A stretch of 64,000 bases of DNA, taken from contig JBASCT010000025.1 of the NCBI GenBank assembly GCA_049651785.1, forward strand, positions 5,563-69,562, written 5' to 3'. Positions 1 through 39,305 of the stretch are shown piece by piece. Positions within the stretch are counted from its first letter, which is position 1, and each line of letters begins with the position of its first letter. The notes beneath the pieces are model-generated. The model did no database searches. It saw only the letters and a list, made by a program, of their open reading frames with translations, and was not told the origin of the DNA. Source of the stretch: Minisyncoccia bacterium (GTDB lineage Bacteria > Patescibacteriota > Minisyncoccia > Phycocordibacterales > Zambryskibacteraceae). The translations under genes were made by a program, and so were the position numbers.

Positions 1-152
1 CCATCGGCGTTAAGACTTCCCACCTCTCCCTTGAGGACATGGCCTACCTTCTGAAGCGCTGTTCGCAGAGTTCCAACTTTTCCAAGACCTTTTTCGGCAG
101 TCTGAAAGTAAAAAATGGTTCGACCCGCTCACCACAAGATGAAAAAAGGTAA
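1..152 (+). CDS. 3' end of an upstream gene, unknown function, partial at the window edge; it overlaps the def start
   Basis: Open frame from position 3 to TAA at 150-152 with no homolog recognised. Contextual guess only: priA often precedes def-fmt. Confidence 0.25.
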   Translation, partial: IGVKTSHLSLEDMAYLLKRCSQSSNFSKTFFGSLKVKNGSTRSPQDEKR

Positions 153-1413
153 AATTCTCGATAAAGACGCACCCGTTTTAAGAAAGGTTGCGAAAGAAGT
201 TTCTCCTAAAGAAATCGGATTAAAGAAAACCCGAGAGATAATCGAGCGGATGAAAGACGCGCTCTACGGCGAGGAGGACGGAGTCGCCATTGCGGCGCCG
301 CAGCTTGGTGAGAGTTTGCGGATCTTTATGGTCCGGGGCGATGTCCTCTTTTTCGCCAAGGGCAAGAAGCCGCCGCCGGGCGAGAAGGTAGCGGATCTGG
401 TCTTTATAAACCCCGAGATTCTTAACTCCTCCAAGAAGAAGAAAAAAGTTGAAGAGGGCTGTCTCTCCATCCGCTGGCTTTACGGCAAAGTTTCCCGAAG
501 CGAGAAAATAACCATCGGCGCCTATAACAATAAGGGAGTCTGGGTAGAGCGGGGCGCCTCGGGACTTCTCGCCCAGATTTTCCAGCATGAGATAGACCAC
601 CTTGACGGCACCCTTTTCACAGACAAGGCCGAAGGTTTGAGAAACATCCCTCCCGCGAAGGAAGTGAAGTTCGCCTACTTCGGCTCATCGGAATTTTCAA
701 AATATGTCCTTGAAGAGCTTGAGGCTTTGCACTTCTCCCCCGCCTTAAATATTTCTTCGAGCAAGGAGCCCTTGCCGATTGAGGCGTTAAAGAAATTGGA
801 GGCGGACGTCTTCGTCGTCGCCTCCTTCGGGAAAATTCTGCCGAAAGAAATTCTCGAACTGCCAAAGCACGGGGTCATCAATGTCCACCCCTCTCTTCTG
901 CCGAAGCTCCGTGGCGCCTCACCGATCCAGGGCAGTATCCTTGGCGGCGCCGAGCCCGGGGTGACGATTATTAAAATGGACGAGCGAGTTGATCACGGTC
1001 CTATCCTTGCCCAGACCAAGGTCGAGATAGAGCCCTGGCCCGACCACTACGCCGCCGTCGAAGAGAAGCTCGGCCGTGCGGGCGGTCACGTCTTAGGACT
1101 CGTCCTGCCGAAGTGGCTCTCGGGAGAAATAGAGCCGAGAATCCAGAATGACGATAAAGCCACCTTCACAAAACTTATCAAAAAAGAGGACGGCCTTATC
1201 AGACCCGATGAGCCCGCGGAAGAAAGTCTCAGGAAAGTTTTTGCCTACAGCACTTGGCCCGGCGCCTACCTCATTTATAAAAACAAATTCGGCAAAGAAA
1301 TCAGAGTAATCGTGAAAGACGCCGAGATCAAAGAGGGGAAATTCGTGCCACTAAGAGTCGTGCCTGCCGGCAAGCGCGAGATGCTCTGGGTGGAGTTCTT
1401 GCGGGGCAACTAG
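115..1413 (+). CDS. def-fmt: Peptide deformylase fused in frame to methionyl-tRNA formyltransferase (Def-Fmt bifunctional protein)
   Basis: N-terminal ~185 aa carries Def motifs (GVAIAAPQLG, EGCLS, HEIDHLDG). The C-terminal part carries the Fmt N-domain (FGSSEF, VVASFGKILP, NVHPSLLPKLRGASPIQ). The 432 codons are uninterrupted. Confidence 0.8.
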   Translation: MVRPAHHKMKKGKILDKDAPVLRKVAKEVSPKEIGLKKTREIIERMKDALYGEEDGVAIAAPQLGESLRIFMVRGDVLFFAKGKKPPPGEKVADLVFINPEILNSSKKKKKVEEGCLSIRWLYGKVSRSEKITIGAYNNKGVWVERGASGLLAQIFQHEIDHLDGTLFTDKAEGLRNIPPAKEVKFAYFGSSEFSKYVLEELEALHFSPALNISSSKEPLPIEALKKLEADVFVVASFGKILPKEILELPKHGVINVHPSLLPKLRGASPIQGSILGGAEPGVTIIKMDERVDHGPILAQTKVEIEPWPDHYAAVEEKLGRAGGHVLGLVLPKWLSGEIEPRIQNDDKATFTKLIKKEDGLIRPDEPAEESLRKVFAYSTWPGAYLIYKNKFGKEIRVIVKDAEIKEGKFVPLRVVPAGKREMLWVEFLRGN

Positions 1414-4446: not shown

Positions 4447-5199
4447 ATGAAGCCACTTTCGGACAAAGAGCACCAGAAGGCCTATAGCGACGCCATAGCG
4501 GAAGCGCGCCTGAAAGGTTCCGACACCTTCCAAGGCTGGTTCGACAAAACCGGAAGTGCCGCCGAAGCTCGTGTGCGCGGACACTGGGATTTCGCCTTCC
4601 ACATTCTTAAAAAAAGCGTTTATAAGCACCTGAGTGCTCCGCACGAGAAGACGGCGCTAGAAATCGGCTACGGTGGAGGAAGAATCTTGGGTGCCGCAAG
4701 TAGTTTCTTCAAGCACGTAGTCGGAGTCGATATACATGGAGAGCAGGATGCCGTCAAAGAATTTTTATCGGCACAGGGGAAAAAGAATTTCACCCTCCTT
4801 CGCACCAAGGGGGACACGCTGGAGGTCGGAAGCGAGAGTATCGACTTCGTCTACTCATTCATCGTTCTTCAGCACCTGCCAAGATTTGAGACGCTTGAAA
4901 ATTATGTGAAGGAGGTAGCGCGAGTTTTGAAGAAAGATTGCCTAGCCCAGCTCTATTTCGGGAGACTCCCCGGGCACAACCCGAGTCAGTGGTTTCAATA
5001 TCTCTTCAAAGGATATTGCGAAATCACTGACGCGAAAGTTAATTACCGCAGTCTCGCCGTCACTCCTTGGAGAATGAAAATGCTCTGTAGGAAATACGGC
5101 CTCTCTGTCCTCGAGTCGGGCCCGTCTTATAAGCAGATGCCTGACGGCTATCCCCTTCGCCGCGGCGGTCAGCACTATGTGACGGTTATCAAAACTTGA
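4447..5199 (+). CDS. Class I SAM-dependent methyltransferase, substrate unknown
   Basis: Motif I LEIGYGGGR, VVGVD, post-I acidic residue. No SD before the ATG. Confidence 0.65.
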   Translation: MKPLSDKEHQKAYSDAIAEARLKGSDTFQGWFDKTGSAAEARVRGHWDFAFHILKKSVYKHLSAPHEKTALEIGYGGGRILGAASSFFKHVVGVDIHGEQDAVKEFLSAQGKKNFTLLRTKGDTLEVGSESIDFVYSFIVLQHLPRFETLENYVKEVARVLKKDCLAQLYFGRLPGHNPSQWFQYLFKGYCEITDAKVNYRSLAVTPWRMKMLCRKYGLSVLESGPSYKQMPDGYPLRRGGQHYVTVIKT

Positions 5200-20315: not shown

Positions 20316-21083
20316 ATGAGCGGACTCGATACTTCATCCTACAAGGGAGTGAGAGACTTTTACCCCGAGGATATGAAGGTTCAAAATTATATCTTCGACA
20401 CTTGGCGCAAGGTCGCCGAGAAATTCGGCTACGCGGAGTATGGCGCCTCAATCTTAGAGCCGACCGAGCTCTATACGGAAAAATCGGGGGCTGAAATCAT
20501 TAATGAACAGACCTTTACCTTCACGGACCGCGGCGACCGCTCGGTAACGCTTCGCCCAGAGATGACCCCAACCTTGGCCCGAATGGTCGCCGCGCGCCGC
20601 CGTAACCTCAAATTTCCTCTAAGATGGTACTCAATACCGAACCTTTTTAGATACGAGCGCCCCCAGCGCGGCAGAAAGCGAGAGCACTGGCAACTGAATT
20701 GCGACCTCTTGGACGTCGAGGGCTTTGAGGGAGACAAAGAAGTGATTAAACTTGCCTGTGCGGTACTCAAAGAGTTCGGCGCTAAGGATTCCGATTTTGA
20801 AGTAAGGGTAAATAATGCCGACATTGAAAAATTCCTCGATATCGGGCCGAATTTTGTCCATGACCCGACGCTTTCGCGAGGCCAAACGTATTATACGGGA
20901 ACGGTTTTCGAAATCTTTGATACCAATAAAGAAAATTCTAGAGCCGTCGCCGGAGGCGGCAGGTACGATAACCTGCTCGAGCTCTTCGATGTCGCCCCCG
21001 TGCCGGCCGCCGGTTTCGGCATGGGCGATATTACTCTGCGCGACTTTCTTGAGACGCATGGGCTAGCCTTATGCGCAAAATAG
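20316..21083 (+). CDS. hisS: Histidyl-tRNA synthetase-like class II core with no anticodon-binding domain (255 aa)
   Basis: HisRS motifs GVRDFYPEDM, LRPEMTPTLAR, RYERPQRGRKREHWQ, GGGRYDNL, PAAGFGMG. The ORF ends 12 nt after motif 3 and overlaps the next gene. Confidence 0.7.
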   Translation: MSGLDTSSYKGVRDFYPEDMKVQNYIFDTWRKVAEKFGYAEYGASILEPTELYTEKSGAEIINEQTFTFTDRGDRSVTLRPEMTPTLARMVAARRRNLKFPLRWYSIPNLFRYERPQRGRKREHWQLNCDLLDVEGFEGDKEVIKLACAVLKEFGAKDSDFEVRVNNADIEKFLDIGPNFVHDPTLSRGQTYYTGTVFEIFDTNKENSRAVAGGGRYDNLLELFDVAPVPAAGFGMGDITLRDFLETHGLALCAK

Positions 21084-21646
21084 TTTTTGACATAGAGACG
21101 AAAAACTTTTTCTCGGATGTCGGCGGTAACGATCCGGCCCTTTTGGATCTCGCCCTCGTGGCCATTTACGACTCCGAAACAGACTCCTACCACTCGTTTC
21201 TCGAAAACGAGCTCGCGCGACTCTGGCCTTTCTTGGAACGAGCCGATATGCTTGTCGGCTTTAACTCCGACCACTTCGACATCCCCGTCTTGAACAAGTA
21301 CTACTCCGGCGACCTTTCCAAGATAAAAAGCCTCGATATCCTCAAGGAGATAAAAAACTCCTACGGACGCAGGATGCGCCTTGACCAGCTCGCCGAAGGA
21401 ACGCTTGGCAAGAATAAGTCCGGCGGGGGCGCTGACGCCATAAACTGGTGGCGCGCCGGAGATATTGAACGCGTGCGCGCCTACTGCATAGACGACGTAA
21501 AAATAACTCGAGAAATCTACGAGTATGCTCTGAAAAATAGTAAGCTCATTTTCAAAGAAGGTGGAGCTCTGAACGAAATCAAACTCGACGTCTCAGAGTG
21601 GGAGAAATCGAACGGGCATAAACTCACCTTTTCCCTCCCATTTTAA
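21071..21646 (+). CDS. DEDD-type 3'-5' exonuclease (PolB-exonuclease-like, COG3298-like)
   Basis: FDIET, LVGFNSDHFDIPVL, YCIDDV motifs. Confidence 0.6.
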   Translation: MRKIVFDIETKNFFSDVGGNDPALLDLALVAIYDSETDSYHSFLENELARLWPFLERADMLVGFNSDHFDIPVLNKYYSGDLSKIKSLDILKEIKNSYGRRMRLDQLAEGTLGKNKSGGGADAINWWRAGDIERVRAYCIDDVKITREIYEYALKNSKLIFKEGGALNEIKLDVSEWEKSNGHKLTFSLPF

Positions 21647-23919: not shown

Positions 23920-25140
23920 CTAATAGCCGCGGAGTCTGTTTATCTTTTCGTGTTGGCGGATTTTTTCGTGCGCCTTGGCCTCAATCTGCCTGATACGTTC
24001 GCGGGTAACGCCGAAAACTTTCCCCACTTCTTCGAGCGTATGCGTGTAGCCATCGGTGAGACCGTGACGCATTTCAAGAATCTTTCTCTCTTTTGGAGGC
24101 AAGTCTCCGAGAATTTCTTTTACCTGATCGGAGACAATTCGGCGGGAGGAATCTTGGTCGGGCGAGAGCACCTTGTCGTCGGCGAGGAAGTCGCCCAATT
24201 TCGATTTGCCGTCGTCGCCGTCGTCGCCTACCGGGCTCTCAAGCGAGACCGTCGACTGGTCGATTTTTTCAATATGGTAAATTTTTTCCACATCCATATT
24301 CATCTCAAGGGCGATTTCTTCCTGAAGCGGTTCGCGGCCCAGGTCCTGCGTCAGGCGTCTCACCACTTGCTTGTACTTGGCAATAGTCTCAACCATGTGC
24401 ACGGGCACGCGAATGGTGCGGGATTGGTCGGCAAGGGCACGGGTAATGGCTTGCCTAATCCACCAAGTGGCGTAGGTCGAGAACTTGAAGCCCTTGGTCC
24501 AATCGAACTTTTCCACCGCCTTATGAAGCCCCAAATTGCCTTCCTGGATGAGGTCGAGAAGCGTTAGATCGGGACTGCGGTTAGCATACTTTTTGGCGAT
24601 AGAGACCACGAGGCGGAGGTTTGCCTTCATCAGAAGATTTTTGGCGTCCATGTCGCCGGCTTCAATTCTTTTTGCCAACTCTTTTTCCATCGAACCTGCG
24701 ATAAGCGGGTATTGGCCGATTTCGCGCAAATACATCTGGATAGAGTCGTAAGAAGAGTCGCCGCGCGAATAGACGTATTGCTTCCCTGTTTTTTCTTCCG
24801 GCATCTCTAAGAGTCCCCCGCCCTCCAGAACATCAATGCCGAGGGTGGAGAATTTCTCGTAGAGCTCGTCGAGCAGGGCGATGTCCGTTTCGATGTTCGG
24901 GAATTCTTTGAGAATCTCGTCATAAGTGACGAAACCGCGTTCTTTGCCGCGAGTGACAAGATGCTCGATTTTTAAGGCCTCGCTGATTCTCTGCTTTATC
25001 GGTTTTTTTGATTCTGCCTTCGAAAGTTGTACTTTAGAGACTTTTTTTGCCCCCTTGTGACCGTGCTTGATAGCTTTTTTCAATCGCTTTTTGGCGACTT
25101 TTTTGGTCTTATATTTAGTTTTTCGGGTGGGTTTTTTCAC
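23920..25140 (-). CDS. rpoD: RNA polymerase primary sigma factor RpoD with a Lys-rich N-terminus
   Basis: Region 2 [39 protein letters not shown]. Regions 3 and 4 present. Confidence 0.9.
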
Positions 25141-37204: not shown

Positions 37205-37310
37205 AGATAAGGGAACGGAGCGCGCTTAGGTGACGCTCCAGGTTACTTTTAAAAATGTTCCCTTCATCCATTATAACTCTTTTGGAACCAAAAAAGTTGC
37301 ACGACTTCGG

Positions 37311-37566
37311 AGCCAAGATCGGGGATCGAACCCGAGACCTCATCCTTCGCTTACACCTCTTTTTCTTTTTATAAGAGGGCTAGACTGTATCTTCCACTCA
37401 CCGGCTAAGGTGAGTAGCTCTTGTCAGTCGTTCGGGCGCTTAGCGCCACGGTCTGAACCTGTTAGGGCCTTTAACCGTTATTCGAGATTCACTCAAAAAT
37501 TACTTTCTAAGTGGGCAGGATTAGCGATCCACCATGGATGTGCTCTACCAACTGAGCTATCTTGGC
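37311..37566 (-). tRNA. tRNA-Thr(GGU) split by a 183-nt intervening sequence between nucleotides 36 and 37
   Basis: Exon 1 is GCCAAGATAGCTCAGTTGGTAGAGCACATCCATGGT. Exon 2 is AAGGATGAGGTCTCGGGTTCGATCCCCGATCTTGGCT. Joined, they give a canonical Thr(GGU) cloverleaf. Confidence 0.7.
37348..37530 (-). other. Intervening sequence, candidate group I-type self-splicing intron
   Basis: The 5' exon ends in U and the intron ends in G. R-like GGTTCAGACC and S-like AAGATACAGTCTAG elements are present. Contains GCGCCCGAACGACTG, which is shared with the palindromic repeat family. Confidence 0.5.
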
Positions 37567-37590: not shown

Positions 37591-38184
37591 TTACAATGAG
37601 GGAAAGTTTTCAATCAGACTATCAAACATTTTTTTAAGTTTAGTGTTATTAAAATAAACAGTTAAAACGCCATATTGATTTTTATTCCTATAACTTCCTG
37701 TCCCGCGAGACGGTGTAATTATAATCTTCTGAAATTGTGATTTTCTTACGCCAAGCTTATTCATCCAAAATCTCTGAGCTGCCACAGGAGAAATGTCAGA
37801 AAATATTTGGAGTCCAAATTTTAACTTATCTTTATCTATTCCATATATTTTATTTAAAAACGTCATATAGGCCATTATGAGTCTCGGATCAACATTGCCT
37901 AATCTTATTGAGTTTTTGTTTCTTTTGTTCCCTTCTCCCCAGAATAAGCCTATACCTAGCCCAAAAAGTTGCCATTCATCCTTAGTTTTTGGTGGTTTGA
38001 AAATAAAGGGATCGCCTTTTGGATTATATCTAAGGTATGTGGCGTCTGATATAGATCTTTTGGGGATTTTGTATTTAGAAATCCAATAATTTATTTTGTT
38101 TTGAGAAACTCCTGTTTTCCTAGCTATTTCTGCAACAGACAACTGTTTTTTTAAATACCATCTCCTTAGCTTACTTTCATTCAT
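37591..38184 (-). CDS. Putative freestanding homing endonuclease (LAGLIDADG-like GLFWGEGN motif) with an N-terminal HTH
   Basis: About 33% GC against about 50% for the genome. HTH LSVAEIARKTGVSQ. Immediately upstream of the intron-containing tRNA. Confidence 0.4.
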   Translation of the reverse strand: MNESKLRRWYLKKQLSVAEIARKTGVSQNKINYWISKYKIPKRSISDATYLRYNPKGDPFIFKPPKTKDEWQLFGLGIGLFWGEGNKRNKNSIRLGNVDPRLIMAYMTFLNKIYGIDKDKLKFGLQIFSDISPVAAQRFWMNKLGVRKSQFQKIIITPSRGTGSYRNKNQYGVLTVYFNNTKLKKMFDSLIENFPSL

Positions 38185-38654: not shown

Positions 38655-38728
38655 CGCGGCCAACCGGACTTGAACCGGCAACCTCTCCCGTGACAGGGGA
38701 GTGCTCTAACCAGTTGAGCTATGACCGC
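38655..38728 (-). tRNA. tRNA-Asp(GUC)
   Basis: GCGGTCA acceptor, anticodon loop CTGTCAC, T-loop TTCAAGT. Confidence 0.85.
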
Positions 38729-38958
38729 AATTTTAATTTTAGATATCTTCTTCCAGCGGCGCTTTTTAAATACAATTCTCGCTTGCGCGCCACCTCAAAG
38801 GTATCATGTTTTTCGGTATAAACAAGACGAATACCGGACATTTTAGAAGTGGTCAGAGTCTTGCCTCCCCCATGCTCATTAAGACGCCTTGCAAGATTGT
38901 TGGTAAGTCCTTTATATAACTTACCTTTATTGTCCCGTAATACGTAAACGACGTACAT
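38719..38958 (-). CDS. GIY-YIG nuclease family small protein (YhbQ/YazA-like), 79 aa
   Basis: YVVYVLRDNKGKLYKGLTNNLARRLNEH. The 3' end overlaps tRNA-Asp by 10 nt. Confidence 0.7.
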   Translation of the reverse strand: MYVVYVLRDNKGKLYKGLTNNLARRLNEHGGGKTLTTSKMSGIRLVYTEKHDTFEVARKRELYLKSAAGRRYLKLKLRS

Positions 38959-38970
38959 AAATAAGTGCTC

Positions 38971-38998
38971 CCCGCCCGACTGAAGTCGTTCGGGCAGG
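38971..38998. repeat. GC-rich palindromic element copy, CCTGCCCGAACGACTTCAGTCGGGCGGG
   Basis: 28 nt. Shares GCCCGAACGACT with the tRNA intron and with the pilin-leader copy. Confidence 0.75.
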
Positions 38999-39011
38999 TA
39001 ACCAGTTGAGC

Positions 39012-39043
39012 CCCGCCCGTACCGAACGGTACGTTCGGGCGGG
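39012..39043. repeat. GC-rich palindromic element copy, identical to the tRNA-Asn copy
   Basis: CCCGCCCGAACGTACCGTTCGGTACGGGCGGG. Confidence 0.8.
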
Positions 39044-39095
39044 TATGACCGCAGTGCACTACAAAGTACCAGATTTTTTGGGCTTTATCAATTTG

Positions 39096-39166
39096 TGCCG
39101 GCAAATGGAATCGGACCATTGTTTGAGGCTTATGAGTCCTCCGTTCTACCATTGAACTATGCCGGC
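39096..39166 (-). tRNA. tRNA with CAU anticodon, elongator Met or Ile2 (lysidine), with an atypical T-loop
   Basis: GCCGGCA acceptor, loop CTCATAA, G1-C72 paired, T-loop TCCGATT (C55 in place of U), 31-39 A/G mismatch. Confidence 0.55.
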
Positions 39167-39178
39167 AAGTGACCATAA

Positions 39179-39207
39179 ACTATATTATGAAATCTTGATT
39201 TTCTCAA
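39179..39207 (-). promoter_or_regulatory. Promoter TTGAGA-17-TATAGT for the minus-strand CAU tRNA
   Basis: Back-to-back with the plus-strand promoter. The -35 boxes are 1 nt apart. Confidence 0.4.
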
Positions 39208-39223
39208 GAAATGCGAGTACAAT
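39195..39223 (+). promoter_or_regulatory. Promoter TTGATT-17-TACAAT for the plus-strand initiator-like tRNA
   Basis: tRNA 5' end lies 9 nt after the -10. Confidence 0.45.
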
Positions 39224-39231
39224 CTGCGAAC

Positions 39232-39305
39232 AGCGGGTTGGAGGAGTAGTACCTCGACAGGCTCATAACCTGTAGGCATCCGTGCAAATCGGATACCCGC
39301 AACCA
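39232..39305 (+). tRNA. Initiator-like tRNA-fMet(CAU)
   Basis: A1/A72 mismatch, A11:U24, U8, loop CTCATAA, CCA encoded, unusual T-loop TGCAAAT. Confidence 0.5.

Follow-up and report, generated by a model that had tools for sequence, protein, structure and literature searches.

Two tRNA genes with the anticodon CAU lie back to back in the stretch analyzed here, 64,000 nucleotides of a metagenome-assembled genome (MAG) of a Minisyncoccia bacterium (GenBank assembly GCA_049651785.1, contig JBASCT010000025.1, positions 5,563 to 69,562), which we refer to as the window. Minisyncoccia (phylum Minisyncoccota) correspond approximately to the Parcubacteria within the Patescibacteria, or candidate phyla radiation (CPR). 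Both genes and their neighbors were read within this one 64-kb window. ARAGORN identified six tRNA genes, two of them with CAU, at 39095–39166 on the minus strand and 39232–39305 on the plus strand, in agreement with an initial annotation that had reported such a pair at 39096–39166(−) and 39232–39305(+). The five other tRNAs of the window, for Asn, Thr(CGU), Asp, and Ser plus an interrupted Thr(GGU), have the canonical TTC in the T-loop, as that annotation had also stated. We read the plus-strand gene as the housekeeping initiator tRNA-fMet and the minus-strand gene as most probably an elongator tRNA-Met, both real and functional, and from sequence comparison we put the probability of this reading at roughly 0.82.

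A predicted initiator tRNA with a non-canonical elbow

Candidate genes were judged by the gathering score of the Rfam tRNA model RF00005 (29 bits) together with a cloverleaf fold. The plus-strand gene scored 51.7 bits and the minus-strand gene 65.7 bits, and for each the minimum-energy fold was a cloverleaf; the covariance-model scoring that had been proposed as a check for pseudogenes therefore gave no refutation. In a default whole-window Rfam run, the plus-strand gene was lost to the speed filters.

The plus-strand gene parses as AGCGGGU UG GAGG AGUAGUA CCUC G ACAGG CUCAUAA CCUGU AGGC AUCCG UGCAAAU CGGAU ACCCGCA A CCA, which confirms the initiator hallmarks first pointed out for it, namely the A1/A72 mismatch and A11:U24, as well as the encoded CCA. 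In the acceptor stem (AGCGGGU/ACCCGCA) the A1×A72 mismatch is followed by G2:C71 and C3:G70, with A73 after the stem; the D-stem (GAGG/CCUC) combines A11:U24 with G12:C23 and encloses the D-loop AGUAGUA; the anticodon stem (ACAGG/CCUGU) contains A29:U41, G30:C40, and G31:C39; and the variable loop is 4 nt long. Passages of Silva et al. (PMC1635315) treat A11-T24 and G12-C23 as complete fMet discriminators. The strict signature of three G:C pairs at 29–31:39–41 is incomplete, as the initial annotation had held, with two of three present, and the stem fits both the relaxed consensus R29-G30-G31/Y39-C40-Y41 and the natural au/GC/GC variant. In passages of PMC1635315, AGG..CCT at these positions is given as a natural variant of alpha-proteobacteria, chloroplasts, and some mycoplasmas, and passages of Shetty et al. 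(PMC5389676) report that au/GC/GC occurs in nature and that the essential pair is the middle one, G30:C40. Initiators of this “first-AU” type have the same anticodon-stem variant as the window gene and, according to parts of the same two papers, support initiation, with co-adapted ribosomes in rhizobia; those parts report no non-canonical elbow, and the lineage of the window is a different one, the Patescibacteria. The AGG/CCU anticodon stem is thus a described natural variant, and both genes of the pair are ordinary in kind.

It is in the elbow that the predicted initiator departs from the canonical form: A18 and G55 replace G18 and U55, with G19, U54, and C56 retained. As position 55 is C in the minus-strand gene, the earlier observation that neither T-loop has U55 also stands. 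Compared with canonical bacterial tRNA-fMet (Escherichia coli metZ/metY), the window initiator shares CAU, an unpaired 1:72, G2:C71, C3:G70, A11:U24, G12:C23, G30:C40, G31:C39, A73, and identical T-loop positions 56–60 (CAAAU). It differs in having A1 rather than C1, A29:U41 rather than G29:C41, a 4-nt variable loop, a 7-nt D-loop (AGUAGUA) with A18 rather than G18, and G55 rather than U/Ψ55.

From established identity rules, the initiator would be charged by MetRS via CAU and A73, and the Fmt domain that the window encodes would formylate it, formylation being predicted because A1×A72, G2:C71, C3:G70, and A11:U24 are present. Its selection at the ribosome's P site would proceed via G30:C40 and G31:C39, with A29:U41 as the natural first-AU variant. 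The Def-Fmt open reading frame (ORF; Table 1) is probably the formylation and deformylation machinery for the initiator; the ORF itself may be a true Def-Fmt fusion or may reflect a missed stop or frameshift. Pfam searches found none of TruB, TilS, and MetRS among the 40-odd ORFs of the window, a result that covers this 64 kb only.

Table 1. Coordinates of the tRNA genes, their predicted promoters, and the Def-Fmt ORF in the window
Feature	Position	Strand	Basis or description
Predicted initiator tRNA-fMet gene	39232–39305	+	ARAGORN, Rfam, minimum-energy fold, parse, relatives
Initiator positions 1–73	39232–39302	+	
Initiator encoded CCA	39303–39305	+	
Initiator A18	39248	+	
Initiator G19	39249	+	
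Initiator T-loop	39283–39289	+	UGCAAAU
Initiator G55	39284	+	
Probable elongator tRNA-Met gene	39096–39166	−	ARAGORN, Rfam, parse, orthologues
Elongator position 1	39166	−	
Elongator discriminator A73	39096	−	
Elongator T-loop	39115–39109	−	UCCGAUU
Elongator C55	39114	−	complement of this base
Predicted initiator promoter	39195–39223	+	sigma-70-like; −35 TTGATT 39195–39200, 17-nt spacer, −10 TACAAT 39218–39223
Predicted elongator promoter	39179–39207	−	sigma-70-like; −35 TTGAGA 39207–39202, 17-nt spacer, −10 TATAGT 39184–39179
Palindromic core	39193–39209	.	TCTTGAttttcTCAAGA; two interdigitated −35 hexamers, read from sequence
Def-Fmt ORF	115–1413	+	432 aa; Pfam PF01327 (8.5e-39), then PF00551 N-domain (1.7e-29)

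Conservation of the gene pair

Relatives were gathered in several samples. Twelve syntenic loci (L122–L133) were reached via homologues of an uncharacterized 223-aa ORF beside the plus-strand gene, which occur in Patescibacteria, Zambryskibacteria included; this route was blind to tRNA features, and the 12 loci are the sole unbiased sample for position 55. A genome scan, with one genome per species, used a pattern for initiator-like genes with a non-U at position 55. Because that pattern demanded a 5-nt variable loop, it could not match the 4-nt type of the window, and relatives of that type were therefore gathered via the adjoining ORF and with a second, window-type initiator pattern in metagenomes (L134–L253). 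The viral sample (L254–L373) comprised the first 120 matches listed on IMG/VR contigs. Many genome-scan matches were chance matches or 3′ halves of initiator genes fused to unrelated DNA and were set aside. Such 3′ halves, with C55 or A55 and joined to unrelated upstream DNA in L099, L101, L112, L121, and others, were probably left behind by integration events in tRNA-fMet genes.

All 12 syntenic loci keep the order ligA, gatC, gatA, 223-aa ORF, initiator, second CAU tRNA, tRNA-Asp. Every initiator among them has G55, an A-G D-loop, and A1×A72; the T-loop is UGCAAAU or UGCAAGU in 10, and 9 are near-identical to that of the window in the acceptor, D-arm, ACAGG/CCUGU anticodon stem, and 4-nt variable loop, with the initiators of L129/130 and L131 more diverged. 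In four loci the initiator is inverted, which places the pair in tandem. Orthologues of the minus-strand gene occupy the equivalent syntenic position and also lie beside the initiator in metagenome loci, where the scan for the window-type initiator gave 34 pairs, 24 divergent and 10 tandem. Across 19 aligned Patescibacterial initiators, 1:72 is unpaired in every one, none of the 20 pairs is broken and 10 have undergone double compensatory changes, and 29:41 is A:U in 14, U:A in 4, and G:C in 1.

Conservation of the pair in syntenic relatives, with compensatory changes that preserve the stems, argues against decay. One or both genes might be decaying pseudogenes with non-U55 bases as damage, a suspicion fed by the near-invariance of U55 in cellular tRNAs, by the low score of the plus-strand gene (the lowest, and lost to the default Rfam filters), and by an A31·G39 mismatch in the minus-strand gene. 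However, both scores are far above the cutoff, G55 is accompanied by a matched A18, the A31 mismatch is itself conserved, and so are the promoters; the pseudogene reading is strongly disfavored.

A further alternative is that the plus-strand gene is an accessory initiator-like tRNA derived from a mobile element or phage, with a working canonical initiator elsewhere in the genome. At least 101 initiator-like A18/G55 CAU tRNAs occur among the first 120 viral-contig matches listed, the A18/G55 type is sporadic in Proteobacteria, Myxococcota, and tRNA arrays, and a mobile-looking GIY-YIG ORF and an intron-like insert adjoin the pair in the window. The gene nevertheless sits at a constant place between housekeeping genes in 12 of 12 syntenic loci, a point weakened by its inverted orientation in four of them and by promoter hexamers conserved in most, not all, divergent loci. 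The same type also recurs in MAGs labeled Saccharibacteria, Parcubacteria, Berkelbacteria, Falkowbacteria, Sungiibacteriota, and others, including a complete 562-kb genome, and no canonical initiator was seen in those Patescibacterial loci. A mobile origin is therefore very unlikely, and we retain the reading of the plus-strand gene as the housekeeping initiator. Long tRNA arrays and phage tRNA clusters (PMC8421152) offer a likeness in that Verrucomicrobia, Myxococcota, and Nostoc arrays and viral contigs share the coupling of AG with UGC described below, but these are accessory, often mobile sets, whereas the window genes are single-copy in a conserved chromosomal context.

Many of the viral initiator-like tRNAs have A11:U24 and an unpaired 1:72, often with U opposite U, and many lie on contigs of 100–390 kb with large tRNA clusters. 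When the plus-strand gene and a viral G55 tRNA were compared by BLAST with cultured or deposited phages, the tRNA-Met matches inspected (Aeromonas phages 65 and avDM6, Caulobacter phage RB23, Mycobacterium phage PegLeg, and Virus Rctr197k) were all canonical GG/UUC, and the G55 type was matched by an unannotated metagenomic phage record only.

Identity of the second CAU tRNA

The minus-strand gene parses as GCCGGCA UA GUUC AAUGGUA GAAC G GAGGA CUCAUAA GCCUC AAAC AAUGG UCCGAUU CCAUU UGCCGGC A, with a wholly paired acceptor stem, a 4-nt variable loop, no encoded CCA, and a D-loop (AAUGGUA) that retains G18 and G19. It carries the features of an elongator tRNA-Met, namely CAU, G1:C72, U11:A24 in place of A11:U24, C3:G70, and A73. 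For tRNA-Ile2, passages of PMC1635315 name G3 or A3 as diagnostic and C4:G69 with C5:G68 as frequent; the minus-strand gene has C3, G4:C69, and G5:C68, a difference that is not decisive because the determinants vary among lineages. All 42 non-initiator CAU tRNAs beside window-type initiators have C3:G70, and in 39 of 42 clade elongator tRNA-Met genes (L134–L253 and L122–L133) A31 stands opposite A, G, or C at position 39. This conserved A31 mismatch, which falls in the 39130/39138 region of the window, widens the anticodon loop of the clade elongator.

The minus-strand gene could alternatively be tRNA-Ile2, with lysidine at position 34 reading AUA, in which case the genome would have its elongator tRNA-Met at another place. 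CAU and A73 are compatible with both classes, some Ile2 tRNAs have C3:G70, the determinants for TilS are described as lineage-dependent in passages of PMC1635315, and as no locus of the clade showed a third CAU tRNA, a three-way partition is not possible inside the clade. Two Saccharibacteria loci (L077 and L087) do have three CAU tRNAs within 8 kb: an initiator, a gene with G3, which is Ile-diagnostic in passages of Silva et al. (PMC1635315), and a gene with GGA-CUCAUAA-GCC and A31 opposite G39, which must be Met. The minus-strand gene shares this last signature, A31·G39 included, and lacks the C4:G69 and C5:G68 frequent in Ile2. It is also somewhat nearer the Met-class references in both Saccharibacteria and Firmicutes (identity 0.59–0.68, against 0.55–0.62 to Ile2-class references). 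We judge tRNA-Ile2 to be improbable, and by these comparisons the minus-strand gene is very probably elongator tRNA-Met.

Its C55 is common to orthologues in L125, L127/128, L131, and seven metagenome loci, and in some of these the T-stem and acceptor stem have changed in a compensatory way; U55 is present in other close orthologues, among them those of L129/130. In relatives, tRNA-Thr(GGU) and tRNA-Thr(CGU) also have the loop UCCGAUU, as does the second CAU tRNA of a Tagabacteria MAG. Since it recurs in Met and Thr tRNAs, C55 is a tolerated recurrent variant and not specific to CAU tRNAs. Elongator tRNA-Met elbows of the clade are found in three states (G18/U55, G18/C55, and A18/G55), and that of the window would be a simple U55C change, tolerated by the T-loop fold, with G18 and G19 kept.

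Positions 18 and 55 change together

The G55 loop of the initiators (UGCAAAU) always accompanies the D-loop AG(U/C)AGUA, with A18 for G18. To quantify this we counted all well-formed tRNAs in the fetched loci, about 1,300, which make up an ascertained and phylogenetically non-independent sample. Overall, 272 of 287 tRNAs with UGC had AG in the D-loop, and 872 of 896 with UUC had GG. The genome and syntenic set gave 69/75 for UGC with AG, 203/205 for UUC with GG, and 43/43 for UCC with GG; the corresponding values were 83/87, 236/245, and 14/14 in the metagenome set and 120/125, 433/446, and 4/4 in the viral set. UUC with AG was seen in none of these three sets. Among the genome-scan matches listed, every UGC loop came with AG in place of GG in the D-loop, and UCC and UAC loops kept GG. 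The switch can also be followed between orthologous elongators of the clade, from GTCGGCG..AGTCGGTTA..TTCGATT to GTCGGCG..AGTTAGTTA..TGCAATT (as RNA, D-loop/T-loop, AGUCGGUUA/UUCGAUU and AGUUAGUUA/UGCAAUU), and it occurs among tRNAs of single arrays (Verrucomicrobia, Myxococcota, and Nostoc) and in phage contigs. The coupling of positions 18 and 55 is shown by this covariation.

With G19:C56 kept, AGUAGUA is numbered A14 G15 U16 A18 G19 U20 A21, so that 18:55 goes from G:U to A:G. Non-tRNA T-loops follow the consensus UGNRA, most being UGNAA; an adenosine of the partner inserts between the fourth and fifth loop positions and is hydrogen-bonded to the sugar edge of the position-2 G, in place of which some contexts tolerate a C (bioRxiv 10.1101/2022.12.26.521914). 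The initiator has the UGNRA sequence, U54-G55-C56-A57-A58, and a D-loop A before G19. By analogy, its elbow may be a riboswitch-type T-loop contact in which an intercalated A18 is bonded to G55, A18 and U54-G55-C56-A57-A58 taking the place of G18 stacked into U54-Ψ55-C56-R57-A58. FMN and cobalamin riboswitches and large RNAs have the same U-G-N-R-A with a partner-loop adenosine (bioRxiv 10.1101/2022.12.26.521914), whereas the window motif belongs to a tRNA elbow, for which UUCRA and an intercalated G18 are considered the rule, and retains G19:C56. Because neither the initiator nor the elongator has U55, neither can carry pseudouridine 55.

Other natural tRNAs depart from the canonical elbow in different ways. 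The staphylococcal non-proteinogenic tRNA-Gly (PMC4574755) is likewise a bacterial tRNA without the canonical D-loop/T-loop pairs, but it lacks G18/G19 and U55/C56, so that both elbow pairs are lost, and serves cell-wall synthesis; the window tRNAs keep G19:C56, show a coupled swap at 18/55, and have a predicted role in translation. A54 of eukaryotic initiators (PMC7912444) is also an initiator-specific departure from the universal T-loop, but it affects the 54:58 pair rather than 18:55 and belongs to another domain of life. A review of T-loop modification treats U55 as universal, with eukaryotic initiator A54 as the sole special case and G55 unmentioned, and the tRNA-array paper (PMC8421152) makes no mention of G55. 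In the open-access full-text literature we found no paper joining A18, G55, tRNA, and D-loop, though an earlier mention elsewhere is possible, and nothing on initiator tRNA in CPR bacteria. The A18/G55 elbow in tRNA appears to be undescribed in the open-access literature searched.

Several further T-loop and D-loop variants were encountered in the loci. In L131 (tRNAs at 4712–4785 and 4949–5021) the initiator T-loop is GGCGGUA, and the tRNA-Asp genes of L131 and L133 (4889–4961) have GUCAGCA; positions 54/58 of all three are G/G rather than U/A, a second coupled T-loop change. In the arrays L002, L052, and L072 (Verrucomicrobia), L027 and L070 (Myxococcota), and L033 (Nostoc), G55 accompanies a CAG-type D-loop in most or several tRNAs, across many isotypes, and the U55 members keep GG. 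An abundant soil-metagenome class, GGCGCGGTAGTAGCGTAGGACAATACGAGAGGCTCATAACCTCTAAACGCAGGTGCAAATCCTGCCCGCGCAACCA, present in about 35 of L134–L253 (for example, L136, L138, and L165), has G1 opposite A72, U11:A24, UAGG in the D-loop, and G55, and was mostly missed by ARAGORN.

Predicted interdigitated divergent promoters

The initial annotation had proposed divergent overlapping promoters with −35 boxes 1 nt apart, and this arrangement is borne out: TTGATT and TTGAGA are separated by the single base 39201, each −35 lies inside the spacer of the opposite promoter, and the geometry is kept in relatives. A consensus scan gave 9 of 12 and 10 of 12 matches for the two promoters, with spacers inside the 16–18 nt range required. 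The scan alone does not exceed chance (2 sites, against 1.0 ± 0.9 in shuffles), so support is taken from the conservation of hexamers and geometry. The −35-to-−35 spacing is the same as in the window in L122/L123, L125, L131, and L133; the hexamers recur in most, not all, other syntenic relatives with divergent genes, and TTGAGA-17-TATAGT is kept in most relatives, tandem-gene loci included. Among 28 distinct divergent spacers, 12 have exactly the geometry of the window and two more are off by 1 nt. L122–L124 conserve the palindromic core as TCTTGAGAAAATCAAGA; in L125 and L131 it differs at one to three bases. We had considered this palindrome as a regulator site, an idea that was dropped because the two opposed −35 hexamers explain it fully.

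In the 65-bp spacer of the window, the initiator −10 stops 8 nt short of the first tRNA nucleotide (8–10 nt in compact spacers), a proximity that predicts a 5′ leader of only about 1–3 nt; for the elongator the distance is 12 nt and the predicted leader about 6 nt. The window also encodes a primary sigma-70 homologue, at 23920–25140. Because the promoters overlap, with each −35 in the spacer of the other, they probably compete, and two polymerases could probably not occupy both at once.

Other features of the window

Two further tRNA-associated insertions were noted. The tRNA-Thr(GGU) gene at 37311–37566(−) is interrupted by a 183-nt insert (37530–37348) that follows anticodon position 36; its T-loop has UUC, its 5′ exon ends in U and the insert in G, and relatives carry an uninterrupted gene there. 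The insert contains the stretch GGAAGAUACAGUCUAG, which matches the conserved group I intron core, with a weak match to Rfam Intron_gpI as a whole (15.1 bits, E 0.14). ARAGORN in intron mode made 17 extra calls, all in coding regions, which were discarded save for this gene (called at 37309–37566). Just upstream of it, a 197-aa ORF at 37591–38184(−) gave weak helix-turn-helix (HTH) matches only; since a 205-aa ORF at a comparable place in L127/L128 has a weak LAGLIDADG_3 match, the window ORF may be a free-standing homing endonuclease. Between tRNA-Met and tRNA-Asp, the segment 38719–39045(−) looks like a mobile insertion: it comprises a 79-aa GIY-YIG ORF (38719–38958), the end of which overlaps tRNA-Asp by 10 nt, and GC-rich palindromic hairpins (~38965–39045), and the corresponding gap in relatives is only about 25–50 nt. 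Finally, at 20316–21646(+) a 255-aa ORF matches only the initial half of the histidyl-tRNA synthetase profile and is followed by an RNase H-like or exonuclease ORF, and the synthetase gene may be split or truncated.

Discussion

Our analysis extends the initial annotation in that G55 proves to be coupled to A18 and lineage-typical, the AGG/CCU stem is a known variant, and C55 is not CAU-specific. Several points weigh against the reading of this pair as a working initiator and elongator with lineage-typical elbows. Both tRNAs are known here from their gene sequences alone, and with only 64 kb visible, a second, canonical initiator may lie elsewhere in the genome. Initiator-like A18/G55 tRNAs are common on viral contigs. 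As the wider sample was mostly pattern-selected for G55 or non-U55, it shows coupling and breadth rather than universality in Patescibacteria. The A18-G55 contact is drawn from covariation and from analogy with other T-loops. Last, the choice of Met over Ile2 was made by comparison, with a modest margin in identity, and passages of PMC1635315 indicate that TilS determinants differ among lineages.

On the comparisons made here, the elbow variants of the initiator and elongator nonetheless emerge as typical of the lineage. A bolder and, in our estimate, unlikely proposal is that A18/G55 represents an old alternative design of tRNA, so far undescribed, that has a function of its own, marking initiators for treatment unlike that of elongators. 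If this were true, the marked initiators would be chromosomal in Patescibacteria and accessory in many phages; the mark might confer invisibility to Ψ55 synthase or T-loop methylases or resistance to elbow- or T-loop-directed tRNA nucleases, or might help ribosomes to which only two G:C pairs are visible to select the initiator.

Genes of this kind can be lost in searches run with default filters, as in the whole-window Rfam run here. The interdigitated promoters are a compact natural example of their kind, and through them the initiator and elongator tRNA-Met may be expressed in a coupled or a mutually exclusive way. U55 (as pseudouridine 55) and G18 are taught as near-invariant positions of tRNA. 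The Patescibacteria radiation makes up a large share of bacterial diversity, and A18/G55 initiators occur in MAGs of many of its groups as well as among phage-encoded initiator-like tRNAs. The replacement elbow would be a T-loop solution already known from riboswitches and a concrete case of a tertiary-pair swap in tRNA, and the swap predicts initiators that lack Ψ55.

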